64,000 nucleotides of DNA, taken from assembly GCA_020851075.1 (NCBI GenBank), contig JADZDL010000020.1, positions 10,171-74,170 on the forward strand. The letters run 5' to 3'. Positions 12,186 through 52,352 of this stretch are shown here, piece after piece (within the stretch, counting starts at the first letter, position 1; every line of letters begins with the position of its first letter). A program made the position numbers and the translations under genes. The stretch is from Planctomycetota bacterium. GTDB lineage: Bacteria; Planctomycetota; UBA1135; UBA2386. The notes beneath the pieces were generated by a model, which saw only the letters and a list, made by a program, of their open reading frames with translations, was not told the origin of the DNA and ran no database searches.

Positions 12186-14342
12186 TCAGCCCCCGATCCG
12201 GGCGCGGGCGGTGTCCGATACCACGGCGCCCAAGGGATTGGCGGTGGGATCCGGCACGAACGCCTGATGCAAGAACTCGATGCCCACGAGCTGTGGCGAG
12301 TAGGGGATCGGCAGGCGGAACAAGGCGCTGTGGTCGGTGCCGCTGACCAGGGCCACGGCGTCGACCGCGCTCTGGGCGGAACACCCAGGCATGCCCAGCG
12401 AGGCGAGGTTGATCGGGGATACAGCCGACCAACCGAACGTCAGGAAGGCCTGGTTCGCCGGCAGGTCGAGCAGGTGGACTTCCAGCGTGCGACCGATGCG
12501 CGGGGTATCGAACGGCACGAGTCGGGTGGCCGGGCGGGTTCCTGCGCAGCCACTGGCGATGGTCACGTAGGTGCTGGCGGGGCCGTACAGGGCGCCGCTC
12601 TGATCCGCCGTGCTGGCGTCGATGTCGAGGCACGAGTAGCCGGCGGGCATGGGCGGGATGAGGTTCTGGTACCACTGAGTCCATCCCCAATGCACGACGC
12701 CGCCGTCGGAGGTGCGGGCAATGATGTGCGCGTAGCCACTGACCACGTCGACGAACACGACTCCCGGTGGAAGGGCGGGTGGACCGTTGCCCAGCGGACT
12801 GCCTGTCATCACGACGCTACCGTCCGTGAGCAGGCCGCAGCCATGAAACTGGCCACCGACGGCCTTGCGGAACTTCAATCCACTGGGCGGTGCTGGGAAG
12901 TTGAAGCGGTTGTTGATGTTGTTGCCGTAGCCCACAACAAAGCCGTCGCTGCGCACGAGCAGGGTTCCGACGCTCATGGCGTGCACTGCCGTGTAACGTG
13001 TGCCGGTGGGTGGTGGCGGCAGGGTCACGGCGGATGCCGGAGTGCCGAACGCCACGGCGATGCCGTCGGAACGCAGTGCTACGGAATGGCTGTAGCCCGC
13101 GTCCATGGCGATGTACTGCGTCGAAGCCGGGAGCGGGGGCACGTTACTTTGCCCGACCGAGTTGTCGCCATAGGCGATCAAGGCACCGTCGGAGCGCAGC
13201 AGCAGTTGGTGGGCGTAGCCTGCGCTGCACGTGAGGTACCGCATGCCCGGTGGAGGAACATGAGATGTCTGCAGGAAGGCTGCCCCCCAGGTGTGTGCGG
13301 TACCGTCTTCTCTCAAGGCCATGCAGTTGCCTTCGCTGATCGCAAGATCCGGGATCCCTAAAGACCCGTCGAGAGCTGAAGGTGCCACCATCTGGGTTGC
13401 GCTGTAGCCCCATGCGACAACCCGCCCGTCTGAGCGCAACGCAACGGTGGTGTTCTGCCCGCCGTCCACCGCCGCGAAAGCAAGCCCTGCTGGTGGGGAG
13501 GGGATGTTGCACTGCCCATCCGCGTTGAGGCCCCAGGCGATCCAGGTTCCGTCAGATCGTTTGGCGAGGCTGTGGGAGTCCCCTGTCGCAATGGACACGT
13601 AGGTGAGACCCGGCGGCAGGGGCGGCACGGCCGTCTGCCCATCGGTATTGAGCCCAACCGCTTCGATCATGCCGTCGGAGCGCAGCAGCAGGGCGTGAGC
13701 ATACCCCGCGCAAACGTCTGTGAAGTGCACCCCGGTGGGCAGCGTTGGGATTGTCGGCGGGTTGACACCTCACGCGACAACCCTGCCATCGAGTGTGAGG
13801 GCGAGCATGAGGGCTGCACTGGCTGCGACTCTTGCGAACGACGTTCCCGCCGGAGGTGTCGGCGGACTGAAATACGAGGTGGAGTTCTGGCCCCAGACAA
13901 CGAGGGTGCCATCAGACCGCAGGGCGAGTGCGTCGCTTCTGCTGGCCGCCACCTGCACGTACGTCGTGCCGGGGGCGAGAGCAGGAACCGGGATCTTGTT
14001 GGCCGAGTAGAACGGAGGCAGCTTGCCCCACTGGGCAATCTGCCCATCCGACCTCAAGGCGTAGCAGTTCGCATTGTCGCCAACATCACAATCAACGAAT
14101 GTGATTCCCGCAGGTAGTGGAGGCGGCGGCTCTGCTTGACCGCCGCTCACAAAGACGGCCCCGTCGTTTCGACGCTGCATAGCGACCATGCCGTGGGCAC
14201 GCACTTGCACGAAGCCTGCGCTTGCGCTGCGTGTGTCGAATCCGAAGGGACCCCATCCGACGACGTAGTTCTGGGCGGTCAAACTGCACGCGAGGAAGGC
14301 CCAGAGCATGGCCTTGCCCAAAATCTCACGGAGGATCGGCAT
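12186..14342 (-). pseudogene. secreted RCC1-repeat beta-propeller protein with shared C-terminal module, interrupted by one in-frame TGA (13770-13772)
   Basis: ORFs 13770..14594 and 12186..13730 are in the same frame (864 nt apart). Read-through gives ...LDGRVVA*GVNPPTIPTLPTGVHFTDVCAGYAH..., which continues the RCC1 repeat. Signal peptide MPILREILGKAMLWAFLACSLTAQ starts at ATG 14342. Confidence 0.7.
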
Positions 14343-14614
14343 TTGGCCCTGGCTCAGTAGGTGATGACGAGGGCGGGAGAAGCAGCCGCGTTGAGCGACC
14401 CGTGCAATCGTGAGTACAGAATGGCGACAGCGCATGCAGAGCAGCAACTGGTCACGCTGGCAACGGCGTTTGTGCTGGCCCGGCCATCGTAGTGCATTCC
14501 AACATGGTATCACGCCGCCTGGGGGCTTGACGTCGCACGAGAACCTGGGGCATGGTGGCGAACTCCGGGCGGTCCGGAATGCTGCTGGAGCCATGTCCTA
14601 CCCACCTTGTGCCC

Positions 14615-15160
14615 ATGAAGGAGTCTGCCACCTTTGCCTTGAGGGCCCTGGCCATGATCGCCGCATGCACCGCGGCCGCGGCGCAGTGTGCAAACCAGTA
14701 TGTGCCCAACATGCAGTTGGCCGGCGTCGACGGCATCGTGCGCGCCGTCACCGTGTGGGATCGCGACGGCACCGGCCCGCTACCGCCGCTGGCGGTGCTG
14801 GGCGGTTCGTTTGCGCAGGCGGGCACTACGAGTGTCGCGTCCATCGTCGCCTTCGATCCGGCGACCGGCGTGTGGTCGTCGCTTGGTCTCGGCGTCAGCG
14901 CCTTCGGCAGCCCGGGGGAAGTGCTCGCGCTCGCCACGGCAGCCAATGGCGACCTGCTCGTCGGCGGCTCGTTCACGATGGCGGGTGGGGTGAACGGCAT
15001 CTTGAACATCGCGCGCTGGGGCGGCGTCAACTGGTCGGCGTTGGGCGGTGGAACGAGTGCACCCATGCGGGCGATCGAGGCCATGGCAGAACACGACTCC
15101 CGGTGGAAGGGCGGGTGGGCCGTTGCCACTTCAATCCACTGGGCGGTGCTGGGAAGTTGA
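14615..15160 (+). pseudogene. 5' fragment of a secreted beta-propeller repeat protein, truncated at a rearrangement junction
   Basis: Signal peptide MKESATFALRALAMIAACTAAAAQ, then ~55-aa repeats (LLVGGSFTMAGGVNGILNIARWGGVNWSALGGG). From ~15089 the reading frame runs into antisense sequence copied from the RCC1 gene and stops at 15160. Confidence 0.5.
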
Positions 15161-15212
15161 AACGGTTGTTGATGTTGTTGCCGTAGCCCAGAACTAAGCC
15201 GTCGCGGCGCAC
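15089..15212. repeat. decayed partial copy of RCC1-gene segment 12753..12956 carrying an 80-nt internal deletion
   Basis: 15089-15127 matches 12753-12791 (38/39). 15128-15212 matches 12872-12956 (81/85). 12792-12871 is absent from the copy. Confidence 0.85.
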
Positions 15213-15271
15213 TAGGGGGAAGCAATGCGTCGAGGCCGGGACAAGCCGGGTGAGGGCGAAGTTGCAGCCCC

Positions 15272-16789
15272 TTACCGTTTCGAAGGACTGACAGCATCCA
15301 TGCTCCCACTTGGTGCCACGAACTGCAGAGGCGCAGGCGGCGATACCACCACTGGAAGCAGGTCCGCAGCAACAACTTGAGGGCCATCGCCTGGTTCAAC
15401 CCGGAAATAAACCTCCGCCTGCAATGCCAAGCCAGCTTCGCTTTCCGTGGCCATCATGATCCTCACTCCGTAATTCCCGACCGGCAACCACCATTGTGCG
15501 TTATCGCCCTCATTATGGCCAACAGCGGTTGCGCGCGTCCCCGCATCGACGCTTACCAATTCTGTAAGAAACGCCTTTGGTGAGTAGTCCTGCGGCAGGC
15601 GCATGTCAATGGATACCCTTCGTAGGACCCGGGCCAAGGTGATTTCCCGGTCCTCGTAGGAACCTGCTGATACATGGATGGGGCCTCCACGCTGCAGATC
15701 TTTCGCCAGGAAGGGGTGTTCGCTACACCCAAGTTCATATTGTCCGCTCGGGAGAGTTGCAGGCTCTCCCAACCGCAGTTCGATAGAAAGCCCCGGATGT
15801 GACAAGAATGAGCGGCCCCACGGTTCAGCCCCGATGCGGCGCACCTCAACCTTAAAGCCGGACAAGCCACTTAGTACGACGGTGCCGAATTCTGACGATG
15901 GAAGCGAGTCCCCAAAGCCGATGGTGGCTGGAGCCTGGAACGCGGTGAGGGCAATCGGTTCGACTTTGACCTTCGTGGGGGTCCGCCCTGCCCAGCACAC
16001 GTTGACATGCCAGTCGCCTAGGGCTCCTTCGCGACCATCATGCAGAAAGGCCATGACCTTTGCTCCAGGCCAGTTCAAACGAATCCCATCCTCAATTTCC
16101 CGGAGAGCGCCTGACGTTAGAGGGCTCCAATCCCGGTGGAGTACCTCGTAGCCCGTTCCTTGCTCAGCTTGCACAGCAACGGTTCCCTCGTTTGCGAAGT
16201 CGTAGGCCAATACATAAACATCGAACATGCGCAGAGTAGTCTCTGCGTGCTCCTCCAATTGCAGGATCGCTCGGTCCCCATTGCCATAGCGTGTATTCCG
16301 GGACCCTACGTATTTCGGATGGGCAACGTGCACATAGTACTTCCCCGGGCTCGCTCGGATGACGGCAACCCCGCCTGAGTCGGTCTTGGCGTGGGGGAAT
16401 CGATTCGATCTTCGCAGGTCTCTTGGCGCATACCATGCGTCTGCCAACCACACATCTGCTCCCACCAAGGGAATCTCCTGGGGGGCAACTACCCTCACGA
16501 TGGCCTCGCCCAGGCGATCTCGGGATGACGAATGCGCGGGAGTGGAACTGTCGGAGGCGCTGGCCGTTGCGCTGCCCGCCGGTTTTGTGACAATCTCCTC
16601 GTGCGGCACTCCAACTTCTGCCACCGCCGTCCCGGCTTGCAGGTCAGGACGCGAAAGGGCTCGCTCCGACGGCGAGTTCCAAGGAGTCCATGTGTCCCGC
16701 AGCAGGATCCCACCTAACAAGAGAAGCAAGGCCGCGACCCACGCTGATCGCCAAGTCCTATTCCGCGGTCGACTCTGTGATGCGGTCAT
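15272..16789 (-). CDS. N-terminally anchored extracytoplasmic protein, unknown function (CarboxypepD_reg-like segment)
   Basis: 505 aa from ATG 16789. Short basic tail plus one TM (WRSAWVAALLLLLGGILL). Segment IVRVVAPQEIPLVGADVWL...TDSGGVAVIRASPGKYYV. Lies in the lower-GC region. Confidence 0.6.
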   Translation of the reverse strand: MTASQSRPRNRTWRSAWVAALLLLLGGILLRDTWTPWNSPSERALSRPDLQAGTAVAEVGVPHEEIVTKPAGSATASASDSSTPAHSSSRDRLGEAIVRVVAPQEIPLVGADVWLADAWYAPRDLRRSNRFPHAKTDSGGVAVIRASPGKYYVHVAHPKYVGSRNTRYGNGDRAILQLEEHAETTLRMFDVYVLAYDFANEGTVAVQAEQGTGYEVLHRDWSPLTSGALREIEDGIRLNWPGAKVMAFLHDGREGALGDWHVNVCWAGRTPTKVKVEPIALTAFQAPATIGFGDSLPSSEFGTVVLSGLSGFKVEVRRIGAEPWGRSFLSHPGLSIELRLGEPATLPSGQYELGCSEHPFLAKDLQRGGPIHVSAGSYEDREITLARVLRRVSIDMRLPQDYSPKAFLTELVSVDAGTRATAVGHNEGDNAQWWLPVGNYGVRIMMATESEAGLALQAEVYFRVEPGDGPQVVAADLLPVVVSPPAPLQFVAPSGSMDAVSPSKR

Positions 16790-16796
16790 GGTGACC

Positions 16797-17192
16797 TCAG
16801 TTGCAGCGACATACTTCGGTCCACACGCCCCAAAACGCCCACCAATGGGAGTAATCGCAGGCATACCCGAGACCACCGTCGGCACACGGGTTGCGCTCAA
16901 CGCAGACTACCGGGGGTATGGCGACTTGACTGGCCATGCCCGTGCAGAAGCACGCAGTGGGCCACCCCTCCGGATTCGGTGAGAGACTGCACTTGCAGTA
17001 GAATCGGCCACTGAACATTTCCTCTCGACAAAAGCCCTCCGCATAGAGGCACTCATTTGGCGCGCATTGCTTCTCCCACTCGCCATTATTGAGTCGGATC
17101 AGCAGCGTGCACCAACAGCTCGGCTCCTGGGCCGATGCAGGGGCAATCAACAAGGCCAGCGCCAACAGGAGAAAGTGCAACATCTGGAGCAT
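16797..17192 (-). CDS. small secreted cysteine-rich protein (14 Cys in ~107 mature residues)
   Basis: 131 aa from ATG 17192. Signal peptide MLQMLHFLLLALALLIAPASA. Four CxC pairs (CWC, CKC, CFC, CRC) plus six single Cys. Starts 5 nt after the sigma stop and ends 8 nt before the next gene. Confidence 0.6.
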   Translation of the reverse strand: MLQMLHFLLLALALLIAPASAQEPSCWCTLLIRLNNGEWEKQCAPNECLYAEGFCREEMFSGRFYCKCSLSPNPEGWPTACFCTGMASQVAIPPVVCVERNPCADGGLGYACDYSHWWAFWGVWTEVCRCN

Positions 17193-17196
17193 TTTT

Positions 17197-17778
17197 CTAA
17201 AAGGCAAGAGGGCGAGGGCGACAACCTCGTCCCCCACGATTAAAGTCGTCGGAGACCGAACCAGAATTTCTCCGTTGACGTAAGGCAAGCGCCAACGCAC
17301 GCAGGCGCTGCCGCGCTCGCTCGACAGCCCTAACGCTTACCCCGAGGGCACGTGCCATATCCGCGTTTCTCGACATGCCCGACTCAAGGAGGCGCAACAC
17401 TGAGCTGGAGGCCCCCCGAGCGGTTTCCCGCAGTGCAACGACGAGATCTGCAGAGGAACGATTCCCGGCGCCGTTGACTTTGCTTACCCATGCGTCGAGG
17501 TTCGCATGAATCTCCACTGTATGTCGTTTCGATCCTCTCCGGCTATCAGCGATGCGGTGCACAGCCGTGCTGCGCATCCACGCCCAGACGACCTTGGGAG
17601 CGAGAACAGGACAATACGGGCAGTTGTGCATCGCGATTAGCATTGCCTCGGACGCCACGTTTCCCGCGTCTACAGATGGCCCAAAACGTCGCCCAATCCA
17701 CCTTTCCAGGTCGGATCGCAAGACCAACCAGGCGGATGCCCCCTGGACTTTCCGTTCCCGCCCCTCAAGCGAATGCAC
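17197..17778 (-). CDS. divergent ECF-type sigma-70 family factor
   Basis: Region-2-like DAGNVASEAMLIAMHN...VWAWMRSTAVHRIADSRR and region-4 HTH MSRNADMARALGVSVRAVERARQRL. GTG start at 17778. Lower-GC region. Confidence 0.6.
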   Translation of the reverse strand: MHSLEGRERKVQGASAWLVLRSDLERWIGRRFGPSVDAGNVASEAMLIAMHNCPYCPVLAPKVVWAWMRSTAVHRIADSRRGSKRHTVEIHANLDAWVSKVNGAGNRSSADLVVALRETARGASSSVLRLLESGMSRNADMARALGVSVRAVERARQRLRALALALRQRRNSGSVSDDFNRGGRGCRPRPLAF

Positions 17779-18026
17779 AGGTGGCTCCTGATCGCGATCT
17801 CCCCTCTAGCCAGGCTCGGGTGACCCAATTCGCTTGGCAGGTGACAGGTGACAGGCTTTGGGCCTCATTTTCCTCCCAGATCTTCCGGGACCGCACCCTA
17901 GCGATCCAATGGACAGAGAGTAGCTGCGCGGCAGACTACCGTCAATGCGGCAGGGAGATCTCTACAAGAAGCGTACGATGCTGTTACCAGAATTGCCAGC
18001 TGGTGGACCGAGCGCACTCCTGTTGA

Positions 18027-20396: not shown

Positions 20397-21809
20397 CTAC
20401 GCCAGCAGCTTTCGCAGCACGCGGCCCGACACGTCCGTCAGGCGATAGTCGCGGCCTTGGAAGCGGAACAGCAGCCGTTCGTGGTCGATGCCGAGTTGGT
20501 GCAGGATCGTCGCGTGCACGTCGTGCAGGTGCATGGCGTCTTCGATCGGGGTGTAACCGAGGTCATCCGTAGCACCGATCGTCTGGCCGGGACGGATGCC
20601 GCCGCCGGCAAACCACATCGTGAACGCGCGCGGGTTGTGGTCGCGGCCCAGGTGGCTCGCATTGCGCACTTCCTGCATCGGCGTGCGGCCAAACTCGCCG
20701 CCCCATACGACCAACGTGTCGTCGAGCATGCCGCGCTGGGCCAGATCGAGCACGAGGGCTGAGCAGGCGCGGTCGGTCTGCTGGCACATGGTGGGCAGGC
20801 CGTGCAGCAGGTCGTCGCTGTTGTCGGTGCCGTGGTGGTCCCAGCCGCGGTGCACGACCTGCACGCAGCGCACGCCGCGTTCGATGAGGCGCCGCGCCAT
20901 CAGGCAGTTGTTGGCGAACGAACTCTTGCCGGGGTCGCTGCCGTAGAGTTGGTGTACGTAGTCGGGTTCGCTCGCGAAGTCGGCGAGTTCGGGCACACTG
21001 CGCTGCATACGGTGGGCGAGTTCGTAGGCGGCGGTGCGGGCAGCGATCTCGGGATCGCGCAGCGCCTCGCTGCGCAGCGCGTTGAGGTCGCCGAGGAGTT
21101 GGATATTGCGAGCGCGCGCGGCGGCATCGAACGTCGCGGGATCGGCGATGCAGGGCACCATCTCGCCGCGCGTGCGCAGTTCGACCCCTTGCACCGTGGT
21201 CGGCAGAAAACCGCTCGACCAGCAGGCGGTGCCAGCCCCCGGATCGATCTTGCCGGAGACGAGCACGACGAAGCCGGGCAGGTCGGTCGCCGTGCAACCA
21301 AGCCCATGCAGAAGCCAGCTGCCGAGGCTCGGGCGGCCGACCAGCATGTGCCCCGTGTTGGCGAAGATCTGGGCCGGGCCGTGGTTGAAGGGCTCCGTGT
21401 GCACCGATTTGACGAACGTGAGGTGGTCGGCGATCGCGGCGGTGTGCGGCAGCAGTTCGGAGATCTCGGCGCCGCTGTCGCCGTGGCGCGCAAAGCGGAA
21501 CGGCGAGCCGAGCAGGTTCGGGTGGCCCTTCAAGAACGCGAAGCGCGCGCCGCGCAGCAGTTCGTCGGGCATCGGCTGGCCGTCGTGGCGGCGCAGCAGC
21601 GGCTTGTTGTCAAACAGGTCGAGCGACGACGGGGCGCCCGCCATGAACAGTTGGATGATCGCTTTGGCGCGCGGCGGGTGGTGCGGCGCGCGCGTCGGTG
21701 GATCGGTGGCTCTGGCTGCGGCTGCCGCGGGCAACAGGCGGGCTCCCAGCGCAGCACCAGCGGCGGCGAGCAGATCACGGCGGTTCAGGTCGGTGGGGAA
21801 CATGCTCAT
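20397..21809 (-). CDS. DUF1501 (sulfatase-like) protein with Tat signal
   Basis: 470 aa from ATG 21809 (ATGA overlap). Tat-type MSMFPTDLNRRDLLAAAGAALG and DUF1501-type segments HTEPFNHGPAQ, WGGEFGRTP, GRDHNP. Confidence 0.9.
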   Translation of the reverse strand: MSMFPTDLNRRDLLAAAGAALGARLLPAAAAARATDPPTRAPHHPPRAKAIIQLFMAGAPSSLDLFDNKPLLRRHDGQPMPDELLRGARFAFLKGHPNLLGSPFRFARHGDSGAEISELLPHTAAIADHLTFVKSVHTEPFNHGPAQIFANTGHMLVGRPSLGSWLLHGLGCTATDLPGFVVLVSGKIDPGAGTACWSSGFLPTTVQGVELRTRGEMVPCIADPATFDAAARARNIQLLGDLNALRSEALRDPEIAARTAAYELAHRMQRSVPELADFASEPDYVHQLYGSDPGKSSFANNCLMARRLIERGVRCVQVVHRGWDHHGTDNSDDLLHGLPTMCQQTDRACSALVLDLAQRGMLDDTLVVWGGEFGRTPMQEVRNASHLGRDHNPRAFTMWFAGGGIRPGQTIGATDDLGYTPIEDAMHLHDVHATILHQLGIDHERLLFRFQGRDYRLTDVSGRVLRKLLA

Positions 21810-23635
21810 CCGCGGCAGAGGGTTTCGTCCAGGTTGAGCAGCGCGCAGGCCAGTCGCACCCACGCCACGTCCGGCGGTTCGCGGTGCAGCGCGGCCAGCA
21901 GCAAATCCAGTTCGCGCGCATCGGGTTTCCGCGCGGTGCACAGGCGGAAGCCAAACGCGAGTTGTTGCCCGGGGGTGCCCTTCTCGGCCAGCATGCGATC
22001 GGCGAGCGCCTTCGCCGCGGCTTGCGAGGTCGGGTCGTTGAGGCCGACGAGCGCCTGCAGCGGGGTGTTGGTGCGCTGACGGCGCACCTGGCATTGTTCG
22101 CGCGAGGGCGCATCAAACACGCTGAACGCGACGAACGGCGCCGTGCGCCGCCAGTAGGTGTAGACACCGCGCCGCCAGCGGTCGTCGCCGGCACTCGTCG
22201 GCCACTTCATGCTGACCTTGTTGGTCGGCACGACGCCACTGGTGTCGGCCTGCAGCGGATAGACGCTCGGGCCGCCGACCTTCGGCGACAGCAGGCCCGC
22301 GGGGGCGAGCCAGGTGTCGCGCAGGCGTTCGGCATCGAGGCGAAACCGTGCCCCGCGCGCGAGCAGGCGGTTGTGGGGGTCGATGCGCAGGTGTTCGTGG
22401 CTGGCGGCGGCGGAGCGACGGTAGGCGTCGGAGAGCACGATCGTGCGCAGCAGGGCTTTCTGGTGCCAACCGACCCGCACGAACTCCAACGCCAGCCAGT
22501 CGAGCAGGTCCTGGTGCAGGGGCGGCGGCGCTTGTTGGCCGAAGTCCTCGGGCGTGTCGACGAGCGGCTGGCCGAACAGTTCGTCCCAGAGCCGATTGCA
22601 ATGCACACGCGCCACGAGCGGGTTGTCTTCGGCGCAGAGCCAACGGGCGAGGCCGAGGCGATCGAGCGGGGCATCCTTGGGCCAGGCGTGCAGGGCGGCG
22701 GGGGTGTGGGCAACGACGAGCGGGCCCTTGCTGTCGGACGCACCGCGCAGGCGCAGGTGGGTCTCTGGGCGTGCTCCCGCGCGTTCCTGCAGCACGAGCG
22801 TCTTCTGCGTATCGGCGCGCTGCAGCTGCGTTTCGTCCTGTGTTTCGAAGAACGCCACGAGCCCGTAGAAGTCCGCCTGCGAGATCGGATCAAACTTGTG
22901 GTCGTGGCAGCGTGCGCAGTGGAACGTGCTGCCGAGCCAGACCGTGGCCGTCGTGCTGGCGCGGTCGAGCAGGCGCTCCCAGCGCGCTTCGTCGGCATCG
23001 ACGCCACCTTCGTCATTCAGCATCGTATTACGCTGAAAGCCCGTCGCGATGCGCGTCGCTTCGGTGGCGTCCGGCAGCAGGTCGCCGGCGAGCTGCTCCT
23101 GCGTGAAACGATCGAAGGGCAGGTCGAGATTGAGCGCGTCGATGACCCAGTCGCGGTAGAGCCACATCGAACGCGGCTTGTCGAAGTTGAAGCCGTCGCT
23201 GTCGCCGTACCGCGCCAGATCAAGCCACGGCACCGCCCAGCGTTCGCCGTAGTGGGGCGAAGCGAGCAGGCGATCGACGAGCCGTTCATAGGCCTGCGGT
23301 TGCTCGTCGGCGAGGAACGCATCGAGTTCGGCGAGCGTCGGCGGCAGCCCGATGAGGTCCTGGGTCACGCGCCGCAACAACGTCGCCCGATCGGCGGGGG
23401 GAGCTGGGGCGAGCCCGGCCTGTTGCTGCGGGCCGGCGAGCCAGGCGTCGATGGGCGACGCGTAACCATCGGGAACGGGCTTGCGAACGGGTGGCAGGTA
23501 GGCCCAGTGCTTTGTCGGTGGCTGCTGGGGGGCCGATTCCGGCGAGTTGGGGGGGCTGCCCGGTTGGGGCCCCTGGGCAACTGGCTGCGCGCTCACCTGG
23601 AGCAAGAGCAGGGTGAGCAGGGGGCGGAGCAGCAT
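21806..23635 (-). CDS. DUF1549/DUF1553 (PSD1) domain protein
   Basis: 609 aa from ATG 23635. Signal peptide MLLRPLLTLLLLQVSAQ. Motifs LLRRVTQDLIGLPPT, SPHYGERWA, CARCHDHKFDPI. Confidence 0.9.
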   Translation of the reverse strand: MLLRPLLTLLLLQVSAQPVAQGPQPGSPPNSPESAPQQPPTKHWAYLPPVRKPVPDGYASPIDAWLAGPQQQAGLAPAPPADRATLLRRVTQDLIGLPPTLAELDAFLADEQPQAYERLVDRLLASPHYGERWAVPWLDLARYGDSDGFNFDKPRSMWLYRDWVIDALNLDLPFDRFTQEQLAGDLLPDATEATRIATGFQRNTMLNDEGGVDADEARWERLLDRASTTATVWLGSTFHCARCHDHKFDPISQADFYGLVAFFETQDETQLQRADTQKTLVLQERAGARPETHLRLRGASDSKGPLVVAHTPAALHAWPKDAPLDRLGLARWLCAEDNPLVARVHCNRLWDELFGQPLVDTPEDFGQQAPPPLHQDLLDWLALEFVRVGWHQKALLRTIVLSDAYRRSAAASHEHLRIDPHNRLLARGARFRLDAERLRDTWLAPAGLLSPKVGGPSVYPLQADTSGVVPTNKVSMKWPTSAGDDRWRRGVYTYWRRTAPFVAFSVFDAPSREQCQVRRQRTNTPLQALVGLNDPTSQAAAKALADRMLAEKGTPGQQLAFGFRLCTARKPDARELDLLLAALHREPPDVAWVRLACALLNLDETLCRG

Positions 23636-23801
23636 GGCCCCGATGATCCCAACAATCGGCGCGTTTGCGCAAGGTCCACCGACGGTTCCTCGCAAAACGA
23701 ACCAACCCGGAGGCTAATGCTAGCCCCCGGGTTGGTCGTGTGAATGGCCCACCCGCGGGTCGCGGTGGGCACTCGGCGGTCGGTCGGCGATCACTCGGCG
23801 A

Positions 23802-25682
23802 TCAGTTGCCGATCACGTTCACCATGCCGCGGCTGAGCCCGATCGGCGTGCCAAACGGCATCGCCAGGTCGAAGTCGATGAGCTGCGTCACGAGCGGCAC
23901 GCCGAGGAAACCCGTGTTCGCCGGCAGCGGGAACGCGAAGTTGACTTCGCCTTGGCCGTTTGCGAACCCGATGCTCGAGGCGACCACCGGCAGGATGTAG
24001 CCGAAGGCCGTGGCGGGCGCACCGCCGATCGGGAAGCCAGGCGCGAACGGCGAGAAGCCGATCGCGAGGCCGCAGAACGCGCTGTTCGGCTGGCCCGAGG
24101 GCACCATGCCGAGACCGCGAATCGCAAAGCCCGTGCTGCCGACGATGGCCAGGCCGTTGCTGCTGATGTCGGGCGAGCCGACCGTGGTCGGCGACGCCGA
24201 GCCGATGAAGAACTGCGAGGTGCTCGGCGCGTGTACGTCGAACAGATCGAAGAGCGGCGGGTGGCAGCCGGCGAGGCCGTTGGTGTTGTAGAGCAGTGCT
24301 TCACGGTAGGACACGTAGACCTGGCCGAAGCTGCTGGTGGCGGTGTTGGCGACGATGCGCTGGCCGTCGTCGCTGCCGAACGTGCCGCCGAAGTTGGCGA
24401 CCACGGTGCTGCCCTGCACGTGCAGGCGGATGCGCTGCCAGCCATCGTTGACACCCGACAGGATGTCGATCGGGCCCGCGAGGACCGTCCAGTTGTTGGG
24501 CGTGGTGAAGCTCGAGCCATCGGCGAAGTCGACGAGGAACAGCTTGCTCGAGAACGTCGTGCGCTGGTGCACCCAGGCGAGACCGGTCATGTAGTGGTGG
24601 CGAATGCCAACGCCGGGCGCGATCTCGGTGTAGTAGCTGCCCGTGACGTCGGCGGGGTTGCCGTTTGGCCCGCAGGAGCCGCGCACACCAAGCGCCCAGC
24701 TCTCGCCGTCGCCGAGGTTGTAGTTATCGAGCATGACCGGCGGCACGGTCGGGGTGTAGGGCGCCGGATTGACGGGACTCATGACCGGGTTCAGCCAGAC
24801 ATAGGTCTCGACGACGATGTCCTGGGTCGGGGCCATGTCGAGGTAGACGGCGTTGCCGCCACCCGAAGCATCCCACATCGACATCGCGAGGCCACCGACT
24901 GGCGAAGCGGGCTTGGCGTTGGTGTTCTGCGCATCGACCTGCGTCGGATCGACGTACTTGGGCGGCACGAAGCCGGCGACCCAACCAGGTATCGGAATGC
25001 CGAGCGTGCCGGTGTCGAAGGTGTCAATGTACGGGATGCCCGCCGGCCGCGCGTTGGTGGCACCGGGCGTCGGGAACGTGCCGACGAGGTAGTCGGTCGT
25101 GTTGTTGTCGTCGTCCCAGCCGTCGAGGAAGCGGCTCACCGAGCACGCGGGCAACGTCGCACCGTCACCGCAGGCGAGGTCGCCAAAGAAGCCGTGGCCT
25201 TCGAGCGGGTGCGGGCCGAACGTGCCGGGCGCGTAGCCCATTTCGAAGACGAGCGAATCGATGATCACGCTGTTCGGATCCTGCAGTTCGATCGACTCGA
25301 AGTCGTAGGCCGTGTAGGTACCGCCGTTCTCGATGGCGTTGACCGGGATCTGCATGCTGACGCCCGGCACGGCCGTCGGCACGAGGGCCGCGTTGCCGAG
25401 CAGGAAGAACGCGCCGGGCGCGAGGATCGTGCCAGACGGGATCGTGTGTGTGGGAACGGCACCCGCACCGCTGCCGCCGTAGCCGGGGCTGCCCGAGTCA
25501 TTGACGACGATCTTCCAACCGCTGATGTCGACCGGCGTGGCCGAACGGTTGAAGAGCTCGACGAACTCGTAGTTGTCGGTGCCGCCGTCGTCGTAGCAGA
25601 ACTCGTTGATGCAGACGGGGGCGAGGGACGTGCCTGGCCCCTGGGGGAGGAAGGCCGCGGTGGCGAGAAGCAGGTTCAGCAT
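23802..25682 (-). CDS. secreted lamin-tail-domain (LTD) protein with LamG-like middle region and shared C-terminal module
   Basis: LTD signature INEFCYDDGGTDNYEFVELFNRSATPVDISGWKIV. The C-terminus ...GQGEVNFAFPLPANTGFLGVPLVTQ...VNVIGN matches its neighbours. Confidence 0.8.
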   Translation of the reverse strand: MLNLLLATAAFLPQGPGTSLAPVCINEFCYDDGGTDNYEFVELFNRSATPVDISGWKIVVNDSGSPGYGGSGAGAVPTHTIPSGTILAPGAFFLLGNAALVPTAVPGVSMQIPVNAIENGGTYTAYDFESIELQDPNSVIIDSLVFEMGYAPGTFGPHPLEGHGFFGDLACGDGATLPACSVSRFLDGWDDDNNTTDYLVGTFPTPGATNARPAGIPYIDTFDTGTLGIPIPGWVAGFVPPKYVDPTQVDAQNTNAKPASPVGGLAMSMWDASGGGNAVYLDMAPTQDIVVETYVWLNPVMSPVNPAPYTPTVPPVMLDNYNLGDGESWALGVRGSCGPNGNPADVTGSYYTEIAPGVGIRHHYMTGLAWVHQRTTFSSKLFLVDFADGSSFTTPNNWTVLAGPIDILSGVNDGWQRIRLHVQGSTVVANFGGTFGSDDGQRIVANTATSSFGQVYVSYREALLYNTNGLAGCHPPLFDLFDVHAPSTSQFFIGSASPTTVGSPDISSNGLAIVGSTGFAIRGLGMVPSGQPNSAFCGLAIGFSPFAPGFPIGGAPATAFGYILPVVASSIGFANGQGEVNFAFPLPANTGFLGVPLVTQLIDFDLAMPFGTPIGLSRGMVNVIGN

Positions 25683-38142: not shown

Positions 38143-38730
38143 TCATGCGCCGGGCGGCACTTCGCGCCGTTCCATCGCGCGTGCGAGGAAGGCGCGCGCG
38201 GTGCGCCAGCCGCGTTCGACGGAGCGCAGCGACAGGTCGAGGGTCTGCGCGATCTCGCGGTTGTCGAGTCCGCCGAAGAAGCGCAGTTCGACGAGCTGGG
38301 CCAGTTGCGCATCGGCGGCCGCGAGCTGGGCCAGCGTTTCGTCGACGAGGAGCAGGCCCTGGCTGTCGTCGGGTGCGGCGAAGGCCTGCGTGTCGAGGTC
38401 GACGCGCACGCCACCATCCCGCTTTTGCGAAGCCCGGGCGCGCGCGTGGTCGACGAGCACGTTCCGCATCGCTCGGGCGGCGGTGCGCAGGAAGTGCGCA
38501 CGATCGGCGTAGCTGGCGCCAGGTTCGACGAGGCGCACATAGGCTTCGTTGAGCAGGGCCGTCGCTTGCAGGGTATGGCCCGCACGTTCGCGATGCATGA
38601 GGCGGGCCGCGATGCGGTGCAACTCTTCGTAGACGAGCGGCATCAGTTGCGCGGCTGCCACGGCGTCCCCTGCCGAGAGCGCGCGCAGCAGGTGCGTCGT
38701 CTTCGTGCGGTCCGACTCCGGGGCGCTCAT
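38143..38730 (-). CDS. ECF sigma factor, ECF43/TIGR02999-like (kinase-associated type)
   Basis: 195 aa from ATG 38730. Motifs LMPLVYEELHRIAARLM..ERAGHTLQATALLNEAYVRL and LVELRFFGGLDNREIAQTLDLSLRSVERGW. Ends 53 nt upstream of the kinase. Confidence 0.85.
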   Translation of the reverse strand: MSAPESDRTKTTHLLRALSAGDAVAAAQLMPLVYEELHRIAARLMHRERAGHTLQATALLNEAYVRLVEPGASYADRAHFLRTAARAMRNVLVDHARARASQKRDGGVRVDLDTQAFAAPDDSQGLLLVDETLAQLAAADAQLAQLVELRFFGGLDNREIAQTLDLSLRSVERGWRTARAFLARAMERREVPPGA

Positions 38731-38822
38731 AGGCGGGATTGTGCCCCGCAATCGGCCCGCGTCACGGCCCTCCCCCCAGAACGGTTGGTGGGGGTGTCGC
38801 GACCGTGTTGGGCCAAAGCGCA

Positions 38823-39986
38823 TCATTGCCAGCTGTGCAGGCCCTCGGCGACCGCAGGCGTCGGGTCGCCGGACCAGGTGTGAGGAGGGTTGAGGCCGTA
38901 GTCACCCTGGTGCGCAAACGAGGTGGCGCGGAACGGCGGGTTGCTGACCGCGAACTCGCTCTGCGGCACGAGCAGCAGCAGGGTGTCGCCGCGCAGGATG
39001 GCGCGAGCACCGCTGGCGACGGTGGTGACCGCATTGCCGGCCCCAACTTGCTTGCAGGCCAGTTGCCAGCCGGTGGCCGGGGCGTAGGTGAGGTCGTACC
39101 AACGATCGGTGCCAGCGAAGAAGTCGTTCGGGAAACTCGCCGCCGGCACGTAGTTGTTGGCCGGATTGGTGTCGCTGTCCATCACGAATGCGTACTGGAA
39201 GCGTTGGGCCGGGTCCGCCGTTGGGATCGGCGCCTGCACGGACATCCAGAACGCGATGTAGTTGCCATCCTGCAGCGGCGACAACGGTGACGCGGGCACC
39301 GTGAAACCGTAGGGGCCAGCACCATCGGGGAAACTCACGCTGTCGTTGGCGTTCTGGAACATGCCCTGCAGTTCGAGCAGCGAGAAGTAGGCCACCATGG
39401 CGCCGAGCATGCGGATCTCGCTCAGCAGGGCGGGCAGGCGCGGTGGCACTGCGGCGGAACTGTGCAAGGCGAGCAACCCCACCGGGGACATCCAGGCGCT
39501 CAGGTACCAGAGCACGGCGAGCTGCGCGGAGCCGAGGTGCTGGCAGAGTTCGAGGCCGTTGCTCGCGGCGGCTTCATTGGTCCATGCCAGCGGGAACTCG
39601 CGCTCGGCGGTGCCAAGTTCGTAGCGAGCAAACACCGACAAGGACAGCACGGACGCCACTGCCAGCGTCGTGTACACCGCTACGCTGAGCTGCTGGCCAG
39701 GCGCGAGCACGGTTTCGCCGACGTCGGGCTCGTAGCCCGCCCCACTGCGCACGAAGAACCGGATGTCGCCGTTGGCCGTGCCGGCGGCAAGCGTATTGCG
39801 CAGCAGGATCGTGCCCAGCATGAGGCGGGTGGTGGCGTTGGGATCGAGCAGGACCCGGCCGCCGCCCGTCACCAGAGCGGCGACGATCGCCGGGATCTGG
39901 GCATCGGCAGTGCCGCCGCGGCTGCGATGGCAGCCAGGCAGGGTGAAGAAGGCGAGCAGGAGTAGGAGGGCGCGCGGGAGGTGCAT
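38823..39986 (-). CDS. putative lipoprotein, unknown function
   Basis: 387 aa with signal + lipobox MHLPRALLLLLAFFTLPGC. No recognisable domain. Confidence 0.6.
   Translation of the reverse strand: MHLPRALLLLLAFFTLPGCHRSRGGTADAQIPAIVAALVTGGGRVLLDPNATTRLMLGTILLRNTLAAGTANGDIRFFVRSGAGYEPDVGETVLAPGQQLSVAVYTTLAVASVLSLSVFARYELGTAEREFPLAWTNEAAASNGLELCQHLGSAQLAVLWYLSAWMSPVGLLALHSSAAVPPRLPALLSEIRMLGAMVAYFSLLELQGMFQNANDSVSFPDGAGPYGFTVPASPLSPLQDGNYIAFWMSVQAPIPTADPAQRFQYAFVMDSDTNPANNYVPAASFPNDFFAGTDRWYDLTYAPATGWQLACKQVGAGNAVTTVASGARAILRGDTLLLLVPQSEFAVSNPPFRATSFAHQGDYGLNPPHTWSGDPTPAVAEGLHSWQ

Positions 39987-44181: not shown

Positions 44182-44185
<4 letters not shown>
43007..44185 (-). CDS. rlmI: SAM-dependent rRNA (cytosine-C5) methyltransferase, RlmI-like (PUA + MTase)
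   Basis: 392 aa with KTGFFADQRDNR, VLDLCCNSGGF, LIVLDPP and VTCSCS. ATGA overlap with the tricorn stop. Confidence 0.8.
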
Positions 44186-47460
<3,275 letters not shown>

Positions 47461-47702
47461 TGGGCGAGCACTCAACGGCGTTTGCCACTCCAGCGCAAGC
47501 CTGCTGTGCGACCCATTGCGCAGCACGGAAACGGGAACCCGCCATGCCATGAGGGAACTTCGCAGTGGCCAAAGAACGTCTACCCAACGTGGATCGTTGC
47601 GCTAGGCTTTCTGTGCCCCGTGCCGCGATTCGAGGGGGCGACGTAGCCTCGCTGCGCCGCCGCCCCTCTGGTTGCACTCGCCTGCCCCTGTCCTCTAGGA
47701 AC

Positions 47703-49937
47703 ATGAAACGACTCTCCCTGCTCATGCTGGTGCCTGCGGTTGCAGGCAGCTTGCTCGCTCAGTCCAACACGGTCCCCGGCCTCGACGGCCGCCTCGAGAT
47801 CCTCGACAACATCACCTACTGGGGCCGTCGCGGCACCGCCTATCCCGGCGGTGAAGTCGGTCTGTCGATGCGCAACACGATGTGCAACCCGGGCTCGGTG
47901 AGCATTCCGTGGTTTGCACAGATGCAGGAGAACCACCCGAAGTTCGGCTTCATGATCACGCGGTTGTTGAACGGCCGCATGGAGCAGATCAGCGATCGCT
48001 CCTACTGCAAGCACGCGTTCACGTCGGCGAGCACGAGCGGCGCCTGCGGCCCTTGCAACGGCATCGGCGGCAACATGATGGGGGTGACCTGCTCGGACAC
48101 CTACAGCGCCGGCAACAACGCGAGCCGCGGCAACCTCGGCCCGGCCGATGAAATCGATCCGTGGCTTGGCACCTGGAACCACATTGGTTCGTACTTCGAC
48201 CAGGGGGATCCCAACGTCGGTGCGCCTGGCAACCTCGATGGCAACCAGAGCCCGATCAACGTCGGCAGCGACGATGTCAAGAACCGCGTCACCGTGAAGG
48301 AATCGGACCTGCAGGTCCCCGGTGCCACGTACTACTACGGCATCCACCTCATCCACGAAGGCGAAGCCGTGGCCAACCGCGCGGACAATCTGAAGTCGCG
48401 CGGCATGACGGCGACCTGGACCGGCAGCAGCTGGAACGTCAGCAACAGCGGCGTTGGCGAAGTGTTCGGCTCGATCCTGCAGCACTGGACGGGTTCGTCG
48501 CTGAACTCGGGCAGCAATGGCACGGCCGACGGTCGCTTCTTCGTCGCCGTGAAGACGACGCCCCTGGGCGGCGGCCAGTACCACTACGAGTACGCGGTCC
48601 ACAACGTCGACAACAACCGCGGTGGCGCCACCCTCCGGGTGCCCGTCGACCCGGCCGCCGTCGTCACGAACTACTCGTTCCGCGACATCGACAACAACGC
48701 GCTCAATAACTGGGTCGGCGCTCGCCAGGGCAATGAAGTCGTGTTCACGGCGCAGGCCGGCAACGCGCTGAACTGGAACACGATCTACAACTTCGGCTTC
48801 GACTGCAATATCGCCCCGGGTGCCGGCGCGGTGTTCCTCGACGAAGCGCGCATCGGCCCGGGCGCCCTGCAGGTGACGGTCGTGAGCGAAGTGCCAGGCG
48901 GTGTGCCGGTGGCTTCGGTCACCAGCATCGGCACCGGCTGCGGTGGCGTGGTCTGCAACGACAACTCGTTCTACGAAGTGTTCGCCACGGCGGGTGCCTT
49001 CGACCTCGCCAACAGCGGCCTCTCGATGGTGCTCAACGGCAACACCTACCAGGTCGGCAACGGCACGGGTACCTACGTGGCGCCGACGGGCAGCAGCACG
49101 AACCTCAACCTCGGCGACGACAGCTCGACGTCGATCACCCTGCCGTTCGCGATGCCGATCCTCGGCGGCACGACGACCACGCTGCACGTCTGCTCGAACG
49201 GCTTCATCTCGCCCGCTGGCAATGGTTCGTCCTACCAGCCGAGTTCCGCCGCGATGCTGTCGGGTTCGTACTGCTGGTACGGCGCCTGGATGGACCTCAA
49301 CCCCGCCGCCAGCGGCAGCGGTGACGTGGTGGTCGATAGCTCGCCCACGATGGTGCGCGTGACGTGGGATGGTGTCTACCGGTATGGCACCTCCAACCCG
49401 GTGACGTTCCAGATGCAGTTCTTCCCGAACGGCAACGTGAACGTGATCTGGCAGGCCGTGAGCGCCCAGAACAACACGCTGGTTGGCTGGACGATCGGCG
49501 GTGGCGCCACGAACCCGGGCAACCGCGACATCTCGGCCACGCGCGGCGCTGGCTGGACCGTCTGTGGTGGTGGCGTGCCGAATCTCGAGCTCAGCAGCGC
49601 GACCCGGCCCGTGCTCGGCACGACCGTGAACCTGCAGACCACCAACATCCCCGCCGGCACGGCCTTTGGCGCCGTGTTGCTGTCGCTGCAGCAGTCGATC
49701 CCGCCGCAGGACCTGACGAGCTTCGGCATGCCGGGCTGCTTTGGGTACGTCGTGAACGGCCTCACGCACCTGTTCGTAGCACCGGGCACGTCGAGCACGC
49801 AGCCGTTCTCGATCCCGAACGATCCGGGCCTATCGGGCCTGCAGATCATCGGCCAGTCGTTCAGCTACAGCCCGCCGCTGACGCCCGTCGGCGCGATCTC
49901 GTCGAACGGCCTGATCCTGCTGATCGGGCAGGTCTGA
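47703..49937 (+). CDS. secreted protein: unknown Cys-containing N-domain + NIDO-like domain + shared C-terminal module (paralog A)
   Basis: 744 aa from ATG 47703. Signal peptide MKRLSLLMLVPAVAGSLLAQS. NIDO-like stretch ITLPFAMPILGGTTTTLHVCSNGFISP...VRVTWDGVYRYGTSNPVTFQMQFFPNGNVNVIW. C-terminus ...FGMPGC...SIPNDPGLSGL..GQSF...LLIGQV. Confidence 0.75.
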   Translation: MKRLSLLMLVPAVAGSLLAQSNTVPGLDGRLEILDNITYWGRRGTAYPGGEVGLSMRNTMCNPGSVSIPWFAQMQENHPKFGFMITRLLNGRMEQISDRSYCKHAFTSASTSGACGPCNGIGGNMMGVTCSDTYSAGNNASRGNLGPADEIDPWLGTWNHIGSYFDQGDPNVGAPGNLDGNQSPINVGSDDVKNRVTVKESDLQVPGATYYYGIHLIHEGEAVANRADNLKSRGMTATWTGSSWNVSNSGVGEVFGSILQHWTGSSLNSGSNGTADGRFFVAVKTTPLGGGQYHYEYAVHNVDNNRGGATLRVPVDPAAVVTNYSFRDIDNNALNNWVGARQGNEVVFTAQAGNALNWNTIYNFGFDCNIAPGAGAVFLDEARIGPGALQVTVVSEVPGGVPVASVTSIGTGCGGVVCNDNSFYEVFATAGAFDLANSGLSMVLNGNTYQVGNGTGTYVAPTGSSTNLNLGDDSSTSITLPFAMPILGGTTTTLHVCSNGFISPAGNGSSYQPSSAAMLSGSYCWYGAWMDLNPAASGSGDVVVDSSPTMVRVTWDGVYRYGTSNPVTFQMQFFPNGNVNVIWQAVSAQNNTLVGWTIGGGATNPGNRDISATRGAGWTVCGGGVPNLELSSATRPVLGTTVNLQTTNIPAGTAFGAVLLSLQQSIPPQDLTSFGMPGCFGYVVNGLTHLFVAPGTSSTQPFSIPNDPGLSGLQIIGQSFSYSPPLTPVGAISSNGLILLIGQV

Positions 49938-49992
49938 TCTGTCCGGTCCAATCGGGCCGACCTGATCGGGGCGTTCGCACGCCGCGATCCCA

Positions 49993-50033
49993 CCGCGACC
50001 CGGGTCCCTGCCAAACATGGGCCCGGGTCGCGG
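49993..50033 (+). terminator. GC-rich hairpin downstream of paralog A (candidate intrinsic terminator, no U-tract)
   Basis: ccgcgacccggg (49993-50004) pairs with cccgggtcgcgg (50022-50033). Three further C:G pairs follow after a 1-nt bulge, leaving a 10-nt loop. The hairpin starts 56 nt after the stop. Confidence 0.4.
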
Positions 50034-50135
50034 CATGTACCGTGACGAGGGCCCTTTCGTTTTGGAGCGACCTTGTTAGGCTCGCCCTACCGCCCTGTTC
50101 CCGCACAGCCTCGTGTCGGATGGGTGGCCTCACCT

Positions 50136-52352
50136 ATGAAGAACGCTTCGCTGCTCGCCATCGTACCGCTGCTCGCCGGATCCCTGCTTGCCCAAGCCAA
50201 CACGGTGCCCGGCCTCGACGGCCGGCTCGACCTCGTCGACAACCTCGACTACTACGGTCGCCGCGGCGCCGCCTACCCAAACGGGGAAGCCGGCATGGCC
50301 ATGCTCAATGAGATGTGCAACCCGGGGACCGTCGTGATCCCCTGGCAGGCTGCCATGCAGCCCAATCACCCGAAGTTCGGGTTCCTCATCGTGCGCGAGT
50401 CCAACGGGCGCATGGAGCAGATCAGCGATCGCAGCTACTGCAAGCACGCGTTCACCTCGACGAACTACTCGGGTCCTTGCGGCACCTGCCAGAACCCTGG
50501 CACCGGTTCCGTGATGGGCATTCACTGCGCCGATACCTACGGTTCGGGCAACAACGCCGACCGCAACTGGCTTGGACCGGCCGACGAGATCGACCCGTGG
50601 CTCGGCACCTGGAATCCCATCGGCAGCTACTTCGATCAGGGGGACCCCAATGTCGGCGCCCCCAACAACAGCGACGGCGTGCGCAGCCCGTCCTACAACG
50701 GCCCGGACGACGTGAAGAACCGCGTCACCGTGAAGGAGACGGACCTCATCACGCCCGGCGCCAACTACTTCTACGGCATCCACCTGTTGCACCAGGGGGA
50801 AGCGCTCGCCAACCGCGGCTACAACCTCGCTTCGCGCGGCTTCAGCCCAAGCTGGAACGGCTCGTCGTGGTCGTTCGGCAACAACAGCGTCGGCATGGTC
50901 TGGGGTTCGATCCTGCAGCACTGGCAGGGCGCGACGCTGGATTCCGGCAGCAACGGCAACGATGACGGGCGCTTCTTCGTCGCCTGCAAGGTGACGCCGC
51001 TCGGTGGTGGCCAGTTCCACTACGAGTACGCGGTCCACAACGTCGACAACAGCCGCGGTGGCGCCACCTTCCGGGTGCCCGTCGATCCGGCTGCCGTGGT
51101 CGCGAACTACTCGTTCCGCGATATCGACAACAACGCGCTGAACAACTGGATCGGCGCGCGCCAGGGCAACGAGGTCGTCTTCACGGCGCCGGTCAGCAAC
51201 CCGCTCAACTGGAACACGATCTACAATTTCGGCTTCGACTGCAATATCGCCCCAGGTGGCGGCGGCGTGGTGCTCGACGAAGCGCGCCTTGGTGCAGGTG
51301 CCCTCAGTGTCACCGTGTTGAGCCAGATTCCCGGCGGTGTGCCGGTGGCGCAGGTGACTTCGGTTGGTACGCCGTGCGCATCCTGCGCGAGTTCGTTCTA
51401 CGAGTCGTGGAATGGCGGTTTCGACCTGGCCAACAGCTCGATGACGCTGTCGTTCGCTGGTGGCGCCTACACGGCCGGTCCCGGCACGAGTGCGTTCGTG
51501 GCGCCGACGGGCACCTCGCTCGCACTCTCTGACGACTCGGAAGCCACGGTGAACCTGCCGTTCTCGCTGGCCTACCCGGGTGGCACGACGACGCAGCTGC
51601 ACGTTTGCTCGAATGGGTTCCTCTCGCCGGCCGCCAGCAATGGCACGACGTTTGACCCGTCGATCGCGGGCCTGCTCGGTGGCGCGCCGCGTTGGGCCGC
51701 ATTGTGGCACGACCTGAACCCGGGTGCCGGTGGCGCGGTGCGGTTCGATTCGACGCCGACGATGGTGCGCATCACGTGGGTCGCGGTGCCCAACTACGGT
51801 GGTTCGCTGCCAAACACGTTCCAGGTGCAGTTCGAAGCCAACGGCTCGGTGCACATGATCTGGCAGGCGCTCGATGTTGGTGGCAACGGCCACCTGGTCG
51901 GCTGGAGCCGCGGCGGCAACGCTTCGGATCCGGGCAACCGCGACATCTCCGCAACGTTGCCGCAAGGCTGGTCACTCTGCGCGAACGACTTCCAGGGCAT
52001 CTCGCTCAGCGCCTCGGCGCGGCCCGTCGTCGGCACGACGCTGAGTCTCGACACGACCAACCTGCCTGCCGGCAGCTTGTTTGCGGCCCTGCTGCTGTCG
52101 CCGGTGCAGTTCACGCCCGCGATCGATTTGACGAGCCAGGGCATGCCCGGTTGCTTCCAGCACGGCGGCGCTGATGCCGTGCACCTCATGCTCGCGCCGG
52201 GGGCGGTGTTCTCGCAGCCGTTGTCGATCCCGAACAGCGTGGCGTTCAGCGGGGTCACGATCGTCGGTCAGTCCTACAGCTACAGCCCGCCGCTCACGCC
52301 CGCTGGTGTGATTGCTTCGAACGCGCTGCTGCTGCTGATCGGCCAGATCTAG
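50136..52352 (+). CDS. secreted protein, tandem paralog B of 47703..49937
   Basis: 738 aa from ATG 50136. Long runs identical to paralog A (NTVPGLDGRL, GRMEQISDRSYCKHAFTS, GPADEIDPWLGTWN, YEYAVHNVDN, LNWNTIYNFGFDCNIAPG) and the same C-terminus (...LLIGQI). Confidence 0.75.
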   Translation: MKNASLLAIVPLLAGSLLAQANTVPGLDGRLDLVDNLDYYGRRGAAYPNGEAGMAMLNEMCNPGTVVIPWQAAMQPNHPKFGFLIVRESNGRMEQISDRSYCKHAFTSTNYSGPCGTCQNPGTGSVMGIHCADTYGSGNNADRNWLGPADEIDPWLGTWNPIGSYFDQGDPNVGAPNNSDGVRSPSYNGPDDVKNRVTVKETDLITPGANYFYGIHLLHQGEALANRGYNLASRGFSPSWNGSSWSFGNNSVGMVWGSILQHWQGATLDSGSNGNDDGRFFVACKVTPLGGGQFHYEYAVHNVDNSRGGATFRVPVDPAAVVANYSFRDIDNNALNNWIGARQGNEVVFTAPVSNPLNWNTIYNFGFDCNIAPGGGGVVLDEARLGAGALSVTVLSQIPGGVPVAQVTSVGTPCASCASSFYESWNGGFDLANSSMTLSFAGGAYTAGPGTSAFVAPTGTSLALSDDSEATVNLPFSLAYPGGTTTQLHVCSNGFLSPAASNGTTFDPSIAGLLGGAPRWAALWHDLNPGAGGAVRFDSTPTMVRITWVAVPNYGGSLPNTFQVQFEANGSVHMIWQALDVGGNGHLVGWSRGGNASDPGNRDISATLPQGWSLCANDFQGISLSASARPVVGTTLSLDTTNLPAGSLFAALLLSPVQFTPAIDLTSQGMPGCFQHGGADAVHLMLAPGAVFSQPLSIPNSVAFSGVTIVGQSYSYSPPLTPAGVIASNALLLLIGQI

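Follow-up and report, generated by a model that had tools for sequence, protein, structure and literature searches.

Introduction

Why do proteins with unrelated N-terminal domains, encoded close together in a planctomycete genome, end in the same sequence? The question arises from a window of 64,000 nucleotides on contig JADZDL010000020.1 (assembly GCA_020851075.1, Planctomycetota bacterium), which was analyzed over its whole length. An earlier note had described seven secreted proteins in this stretch that terminate in a similar beta-rich module: a protein with RCC1 repeats, two LTD proteins (LTD1 and LTD2), a Kelch beta-propeller, a PD40/TolB-like protein, and two tandem paralogs called NIDO-like (paralogs A and B). 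The module is characterized here as the C-terminal domain of a large protein family of Planctomycetota, and is putatively assigned to the sorting or surface anchoring of its carriers. Protein movement across and onto the planctomycete outer membrane is poorly understood, and the clade of the carriers is almost entirely uncultured.

A Homologous C-Terminal Domain

The common C-terminal module is real. Pairwise BLASTP comparisons with composition correction, using the last 140 amino acids of each carrier, related the RCC1 protein to the Kelch protein with 57 bits (E 2e-15), to paralog A with 50 bits and to paralog B with 44 bits. Kelch and paralog A shared 37 bits, the two paralogs 154 bits. LTD1 and LTD2 matched each other across the module with 82 bits (E=7e-25). 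The four clear copies (RCC1, Kelch, paralogs A and B) were aligned and used in a word-indexed search, which yielded 79 short metagenomic proteins with E-values down to 1e-30. None of these 79 relatives has a Pfam domain. A first family hidden Markov model (HMM) was built from 52 of the metagenomic modules and the four clear copies, with neither LTD protein included. It detected LTD2 over the whole model (E=1.9e-9) and LTD1 with E=2.6e-3, both alignments ending at the last residue. RCC1, Kelch and the two paralogs scored between 1e-30 and 1e-46, these copies being themselves part of the model. Homology is thus established by BLASTP and HMM for six carriers, and the LTD copies are the more divergent ones, as had been noticed by eye. 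A six-frame translation of the window revealed no copy beyond the seven.

The module comprises about 125–130 amino acids, more than the approximately 100 first estimated. Residues that hardly vary make up a series of motifs: G-x-G-C-x-G near the start, P-x-L-G, D-L-x-x-L-G-M-P-G-C in the middle and I-P-N, then a conserved Q, S-N, and a final [IVL]-G followed by 0–2 residues. The last 30 residues of the carriers consist of beta-strand sequence up to this terminal motif. A disulfide is predicted between Cys6 and Cys66. In a covariation test of the cysteine pair, 174 sequences had both residues, 20 only the second and 3 neither, with truncation or misalignment affecting several of the 20. AlphaFold predicts an 11-strand all-beta sandwich (pLDDT 97.7, pTM 0.88), in agreement with the beta-rich character ascribed to the module before. 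In the structural comparison that the earlier note had proposed, the best Foldseek matches of the canonical model in the PDB had E>=4e-3 and TM-scores <=0.52, and comprised GM2 activator, NPC2, FN3, SoxZ and complement MG domains. Over two models (E>=1.5e-3, TM<=0.52), only generic immunoglobulin (Ig)-like or ML-like sandwiches were retrieved. Judged from the models, the fold is a predicted generic Ig-like or ML-like sandwich. A profile search of the PDB found no sequence homolog, the best E-value of 0.095 belonging to unrelated enzymes.

The PD40/TolB-like protein required an indirect approach. Its C-terminus, counted earlier as a seventh copy, was not detected directly: the HMM gave E 0.13 or no match, hhalign against the family reached 11–18%, and a word-indexed homolog search with the last 140 amino acids gave no link to the family. 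A search with the full-length protein recovered about 90 orthologs of the same length. The canonical module is found in 34 of them at residues ~290–412 (E 1e-12 to 1e-22), while in 53, the window protein among them, this position is occupied by a conserved but divergent C-terminus. An hhalign comparison of the canonical with the divergent C-termini gave 96.6% (E=5.6e-10), covering the last ~52 columns only, in register with the C-terminus. In the AlphaFold model of the divergent form (pLDDT 87.5), strands and short helices succeed one another as they do in the canonical module; GMPGC and the two cysteines are missing. The PD40 copy is linked to the family only by way of orthologs of equal length with the canonical module at the same position. 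On these sequence and model comparisons it is treated as a diverged derivative.

Family Size, Terminal Position and Passengers

When 1.84 billion representatives of clusters formed at 50% identity were searched exhaustively with HMMER, 15,769 clusters were assigned to the family at E<=1e-3, 8,471 at E<=1e-10 and 586 at E<=1e-30. The count at E<=1e-10 is the safer one, because the query profile includes some flanking columns. The position of the module is strict. Of 192 database proteins in which it is complete, 191 have it extending to the C-terminus, and in 271 of 304 non-identical carriers the chain ends 0–2 residues past the last conserved glycine. Among the matches listed from genomes, 122 of 135 copies were complete, terminal and followed by a stop codon. 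A second copy in the same protein is very rare: a single matched stretch was found in 148 of the 150 best family matches.

The partner domains vary widely. In 71 further complete carriers, Pfam identified Kelch (14), DUF5122 (5), RCC1 (4), FG-GAP (3), Sortilin/BNR (3), PPC (3), GSDH (2) and PKD (2), besides Cleaved_Adhesin, WD40 and others; many passengers have no Pfam domain. Domains of these families are typically located on the cell surface or outside the cell. A crude test registered a signal-like hydrophobic stretch at the N-terminus of 63–72% of the carriers, compared with 6–18% of internal control windows, and clear signal peptides are present in window carriers. Approximately half of the best family matches are proteins of ~690–760 amino acids, a length similar to that of paralogs A and B. 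This suggests that such carriers, putatively with a common passenger, may form a major protein family of the clade.

Genes adjacent to the carriers were compared by clustering all non-carrier open reading frames (ORFs) in 100 module loci of 8 kb. Serine/threonine kinases were the only recurrent neighbor family (9 of the 100 loci).

Restriction to Planctomycetota

Species representatives of GTDB were scanned with a DNA pattern for DLxxLGMPGC, which catches about 21% of the family. The scan gave at least 113 loci, and 100 of those listed hold true modules by HMM. Among the matches listed, all true module loci came from metagenome-assembled genomes (MAGs) that are labeled Planctomycetota or unclassified, and the 13 listed pattern loci from other phyla were all devoid of a module by HMM. 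At least 129 modules occur in at least 50 species-level assemblies, often 2–4 within 8 kb. One MAG has at least 10 copies among the matches listed. The GC content of module loci ranges from 62 to 75%, with a median of 70%. The Saltatorellus clade has 67–70.5% GC and includes the GTDB taxa UBA1135 and UBA8108 (10.1101/817700; PMC11032199). On the basis of GC content and kinase richness, the carrier lineage may be the Saltatorellus clade or a relative.

One contig that IMG/VR classifies as viral (IMGVR_UViG_3300031740_000004) encodes a 315-amino-acid protein (locus L007, 1019–1963, minus strand) that ends in the module with E=4.9e-10. This contig probably comes from the same lineage, as a fragment of cellular DNA or part of a prophage.

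Relation to Known Sorting Domains

No Pfam or NCBIfam model matched the module at E<=1 in any of the seven carriers, no Pfam family covers it in the 71 further complete carriers, and a literature search found no description of this domain. TIGR04183, TIGR04131, PF18962 and PF13585 were without a match at E<=1 on the seven proteins and did not appear among the 71 others. The C-terminal domain (CTD) of the type IX secretion system (T9SS; TIGR04183, PF18962), PEP-CTERM, LPXTG, GlyGly-CTERM and MYXO-CTERM are excluded because matches at this threshold are lacking. The initial impressions that no known sorting signal and no T9SS CTD-like motif is present are thereby borne out; a C-terminal hydrophobic helix is likewise absent from the carriers. 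Among the tested properties of known sorting domains, the family shares the terminal position and the putative dependence on Sec, and no others.

The closest parallel in behavior is the T9SS CTD of Bacteroidota (type A, TIGR04183/PF18962; type B, TIGR04131). Both are terminal beta-sandwiches on carriers with Sec signal peptides, occur on many unrelated passengers, are present in several to many carriers per genome within one lineage, and mark cargo that is unlinked to machinery genes. The T9SS CTD is cleaved by PorU, and the cargo is attached to anionic lipopolysaccharide (A-LPS). It comprises ~70–100 amino acids in seven strands, whereas the module has 125–130 amino acids and 11 strands, is defined by the motifs GxGC, GMPGC, IPN and a terminal [IVL]G, has no sequence or profile similarity to the CTD, and is found in Planctomycetota. 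No T9SS CTD structure appeared among the 50 best Foldseek matches, and none of the T9SS core components (SprA, PorV, PorU, GldKLMN) is encoded in the window. To our knowledge, a T9SS is not known in Planctomycetota.

Cargo of the Slam-dependent type XI secretion system (T11SS), represented by TbpB and the hemophilin family, has a beta-rich C-terminal domain of similar size that is present on diverse surface proteins. That domain is a targeting element with an 8-strand barrel, while a sandwich is predicted for the module, and T11SS cargo proteins are mostly lipoproteins, in contrast to the ordinary signal peptides of the window carriers. A Pfam match was not obtained, Foldseek returned neither TbpB nor hemophilin barrels, and no Slam/DUF560 gene was seen near carriers in the 100 loci of 8 kb. 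PPC (PF04151) is another small C-terminal beta-sandwich of secreted proteins, often removed after export. However, PF04151 matches passenger regions only, upstream of the module in its three carriers, and no protein of the window. The tripartite signals (PEP-CTERM/exosortase, LPXTG/sortase, GlyGly-CTERM/rhombosortase, MYXO-CTERM) resemble the module in being terminal, lineage-restricted, multi-copy and attached to diverse surface proteins. They are tags of ~25–35 amino acids in which a motif is combined with a hydrophobic helix and a basic tail, unlike the folded module, which has no terminal helix.

Putative Sorting Function and Alternative Explanations

The reading that we favor, with modest confidence, is that the module serves one lineage as a C-terminal domain for sorting or surface anchoring, analogous in action to the T9SS CTD and not homologous to it. 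It is favored because of the strict terminal position, the single copy per protein, the promiscuous association with extracellular-type passengers, the many copies per genome and the occurrence in one lineage. Together, these five properties are the signature of C-terminal sorting domains and are unusual for ordinary binding modules. With their N-terminal signal peptides, carriers would use Sec to pass the inner membrane and would then fold in the periplasm. A hypothetical machinery of the outer membrane or cell surface, or a surface polymer, would recognize the C-terminal domain, and the passenger would thereby be translocated to, or held on, the cell surface. The mechanism is proposed for a clade of high-GC, possibly Saltatorellus-related Planctomycetota. 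From the behavior of the family we infer that the carriers are exported, that a machinery recognizes them, and that they may be cleaved or covalently attached. The earlier suggestion of a dedicated sorting, surface-retention or secretion-recognition domain fits the behavior of about 300 relatives, while the connection it implied to a type II secretion system (T2SS)-like operon is not supported. In a more specific and tentative version, the module would tag cargo for a sorting or outer-membrane translocation system not recognized before. Such a system might be specific to early-branching, high-GC, shape-shifting Saltatorellus-like Planctomycetota and form a counterpart of the T9SS made of unrelated parts, by which each genome would send beta-propeller and adhesin-like proteins to the surface by the dozen.

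Several observations speak against a sorting or anchoring role. Protein P0214 has the module directly after the signal peptide, followed by a 117-amino-acid domain. A small subfamily (L017, 7448–7999, minus strand; L074, 5861–7132, plus strand) has a conserved extension of 37 amino acids after the module, with the sequence …GPTRNMGMSFR…GTNGVFMAVV.LEGVFP. These exceptions mean that the C-terminus need not be free in every case. The LTD and PD40 variants are without both cysteines and GMPGC and are still conserved, so that a receptor common to all copies would need to accept considerable variation. Near the carriers in the 100 clustered loci, no gene for secretion or processing recurs. Finally, a domain of this size and fold might just as well serve in binding.

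This last point leads to the chief competing explanation, a binding or adhesion domain that is lectin-like, resembles a carbohydrate-binding module (CBM) or self-associates, and is not recognized by a secretion machinery. Non-covalent contacts would hold the passenger on an envelope polymer, on other carriers, or on the surface of a substrate or prey. We regard this as possible but rather doubtful. The generic Ig-like/ML-like sandwich occurs in many binding modules, and the lack of a linked machinery gene in the 100 loci, the N-terminal module of P0214 and the extended subfamily are all compatible with it; a binding site could be formed by conserved polar residues (N of IPN, Q, D, SN). However, binding modules are usually variable in position and often arranged in tandem, whereas this module is terminal in ~97–99% of cases and almost always single, its chain stops 0–2 residues past the last strand, and no Pfam CBM or Ig family was matched. 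That the resemblance is compositional or a product of chance, which the earlier note had itself named as an objection, can hardly be maintained. The sequences have 67% GC and are rich in G, A and P, and the TolB-like copy is not significant alone, but the BLASTP scores of 37–57 bits between unrelated carriers are corrected for composition, HMM E-values extend to 1e-52, thousands of relatives share the motifs in register and the AlphaFold model is confident. For six window copies, chance similarity is already refuted at the level of sequence comparison.

Two further explanations invoke known machineries. Recognition by the neighboring T2SS/type IV pilus (T4P)-like system (53315–63800) is improbable. 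The two NIDO-like carriers lie just upstream of this cluster, and Planctomycetota encode many pseudopilin-like proteins. Against this, a divergently transcribed rsmE-like rRNA methyltransferase gene separates paralog B from the cluster, and the other five window carriers are 17–40 kb away. No PilM or pseudopilin homolog is located near the module in 100 other module loci, where the FHA protein appeared once. We know of no conserved terminal domain in T2SS substrates. A very diverged T9SS CTD, in a lineage with a cryptic T9SS, is also highly improbable. The logic is the same, since passengers of many kinds have a Sec signal peptide and end in a beta-sandwich that occurs in many copies per genome and in one lineage; the absence of all four CTD models at E<=1, the differences in length and strand number and the Foldseek result argue against it.

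If the module, as a sorting or anchoring domain, indeed drives export, the few secretion routes that depend on a C-terminal domain would be joined by a new one. The more than 8,000 clusters at 50% identity mark a large putative surface-protein set that is invisible to Pfam and NCBIfam. The module offers a handle for defining the surface proteome of the carrier organisms and a starting point for finding the recognizing machinery by phyletic profiling and co-fold screening. A family model would improve the annotation of thousands of "hypothetical" proteins.

Carrier Genes of the Window

All seven carrier ORFs are present where they had been reported, and the peptide strings quoted from them read correctly. 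The window has a GC content of 64–69%. Four carriers are encoded on the minus strand. The module of the RCC1-repeat carrier (12189–12575) matches model positions 1–130 of the HMM with E=7e-52 and ends at the last residue; its passenger matches RCC1_2 of Pfam (E=4e-37). The ORF that bears the module extends over 12186–13769 after an internal stop, and the full gene is probably 12186–14342. The interruption is an in-frame TGA at 13770–13772 (minus strand), at a place where the consensus 'VVAWG' needs tryptophan (TGG). Because this codon splits the gene, the module-bearing ORF itself has no signal peptide; the signal peptide MPILREILGKAMLWAFLACSLTAQ is located in the upstream in-frame ORF, before the TGA. 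A pseudogene, a sequencing error or read-through may account for the TGA.

LTD carrier 1 (gene 23802–25682, module 23805–24203) has an N-terminal LTD domain (Pfam E=5e-14), and the independent HMM detected its module with E=2.6e-3. In LTD carrier 2 (gene 25913–27655, LTD Pfam match E=1.4e-19), the module at 25916–26308 covers model positions 5–130 up to the last residue (independent HMM E=1.9e-9). Both LTD modules are without the two cysteines, and that of carrier 1 is also without GMPGC. The Kelch beta-propeller carrier (gene 27864–29237) has its module at 27867–28274 (HMM E=9e-30), Kelch matches of Pfam on the passenger and the signal peptide MKISLVLLCAAVTGPCALGQ.

The remaining three carriers are encoded on the plus strand. 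The PD40/TolB-like protein corresponds to a JGI gene call at 34317–35543 (408 amino acids), in which the diverged derivative, assigned by the ortholog link, occupies 35166–35540. Paralog A, an unannotated secreted protein of ~745 amino acids with the signal peptide MKRLSLLMLVPAVAGSLLAQ, has its likely start at 47703 and its stop at 49937; the module lies at 49548–49934 (HMM E=1.9e-34). Paralog B has its likely start at 50136 and its stop at 52352, the signal peptide MKNASLLAIVPLLAGSLLAQ, and a module at 51954–52349 (HMM E=6e-32) that is 56% identical to the module of paralog A. The ~615-amino-acid passengers of these tandem paralogs (47703–49547 and 50136–51953) gave no Pfam match at E<=1, and the label NIDO-like is consequently without Pfam support.

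Genes Surrounding the Carriers

The T4P/T2SS-like cluster (plus strand) encodes FHA/YscD-like, PilM_2 and PilN-like proteins, a TPR protein that gene calling had divided, and two proteins of the prepilin type, which have the motifs GFTLIELLIV (60430–61095) and GFTLIELLVV (61147–62121). A secretin or an ATPase belonging to the cluster is not visible within the window. PSCyt2/PSD1 and DUF1501 genes (20397–23695, minus strand) are located directly downstream of the row of LTD and Kelch carriers. The PD40 carrier is adjoined by a TPR-containing serine/threonine kinase (35576–38089, minus strand) and an extracytoplasmic function (ECF) sigma factor (38143–38826, minus strand). The pair of PSCyt2/PSD1 and DUF1501 genes, as well as an ECF sigma factor beside a serine/threonine kinase, are typical of Planctomycetota. 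The rest of the window contains housekeeping genes, comprising a pst phosphate transporter operon and genes for a cysteine desulfurase, a rotamase, a KaiC-like ATPase, methyltransferases and a tricorn protease. The stretch from 14400 to 17800 has a lower GC content (0.64), ORFs without Pfam matches and a gene for a small HTH_28/HTH_29 protein (17197–17778, minus strand); it may be a mobile element remnant.

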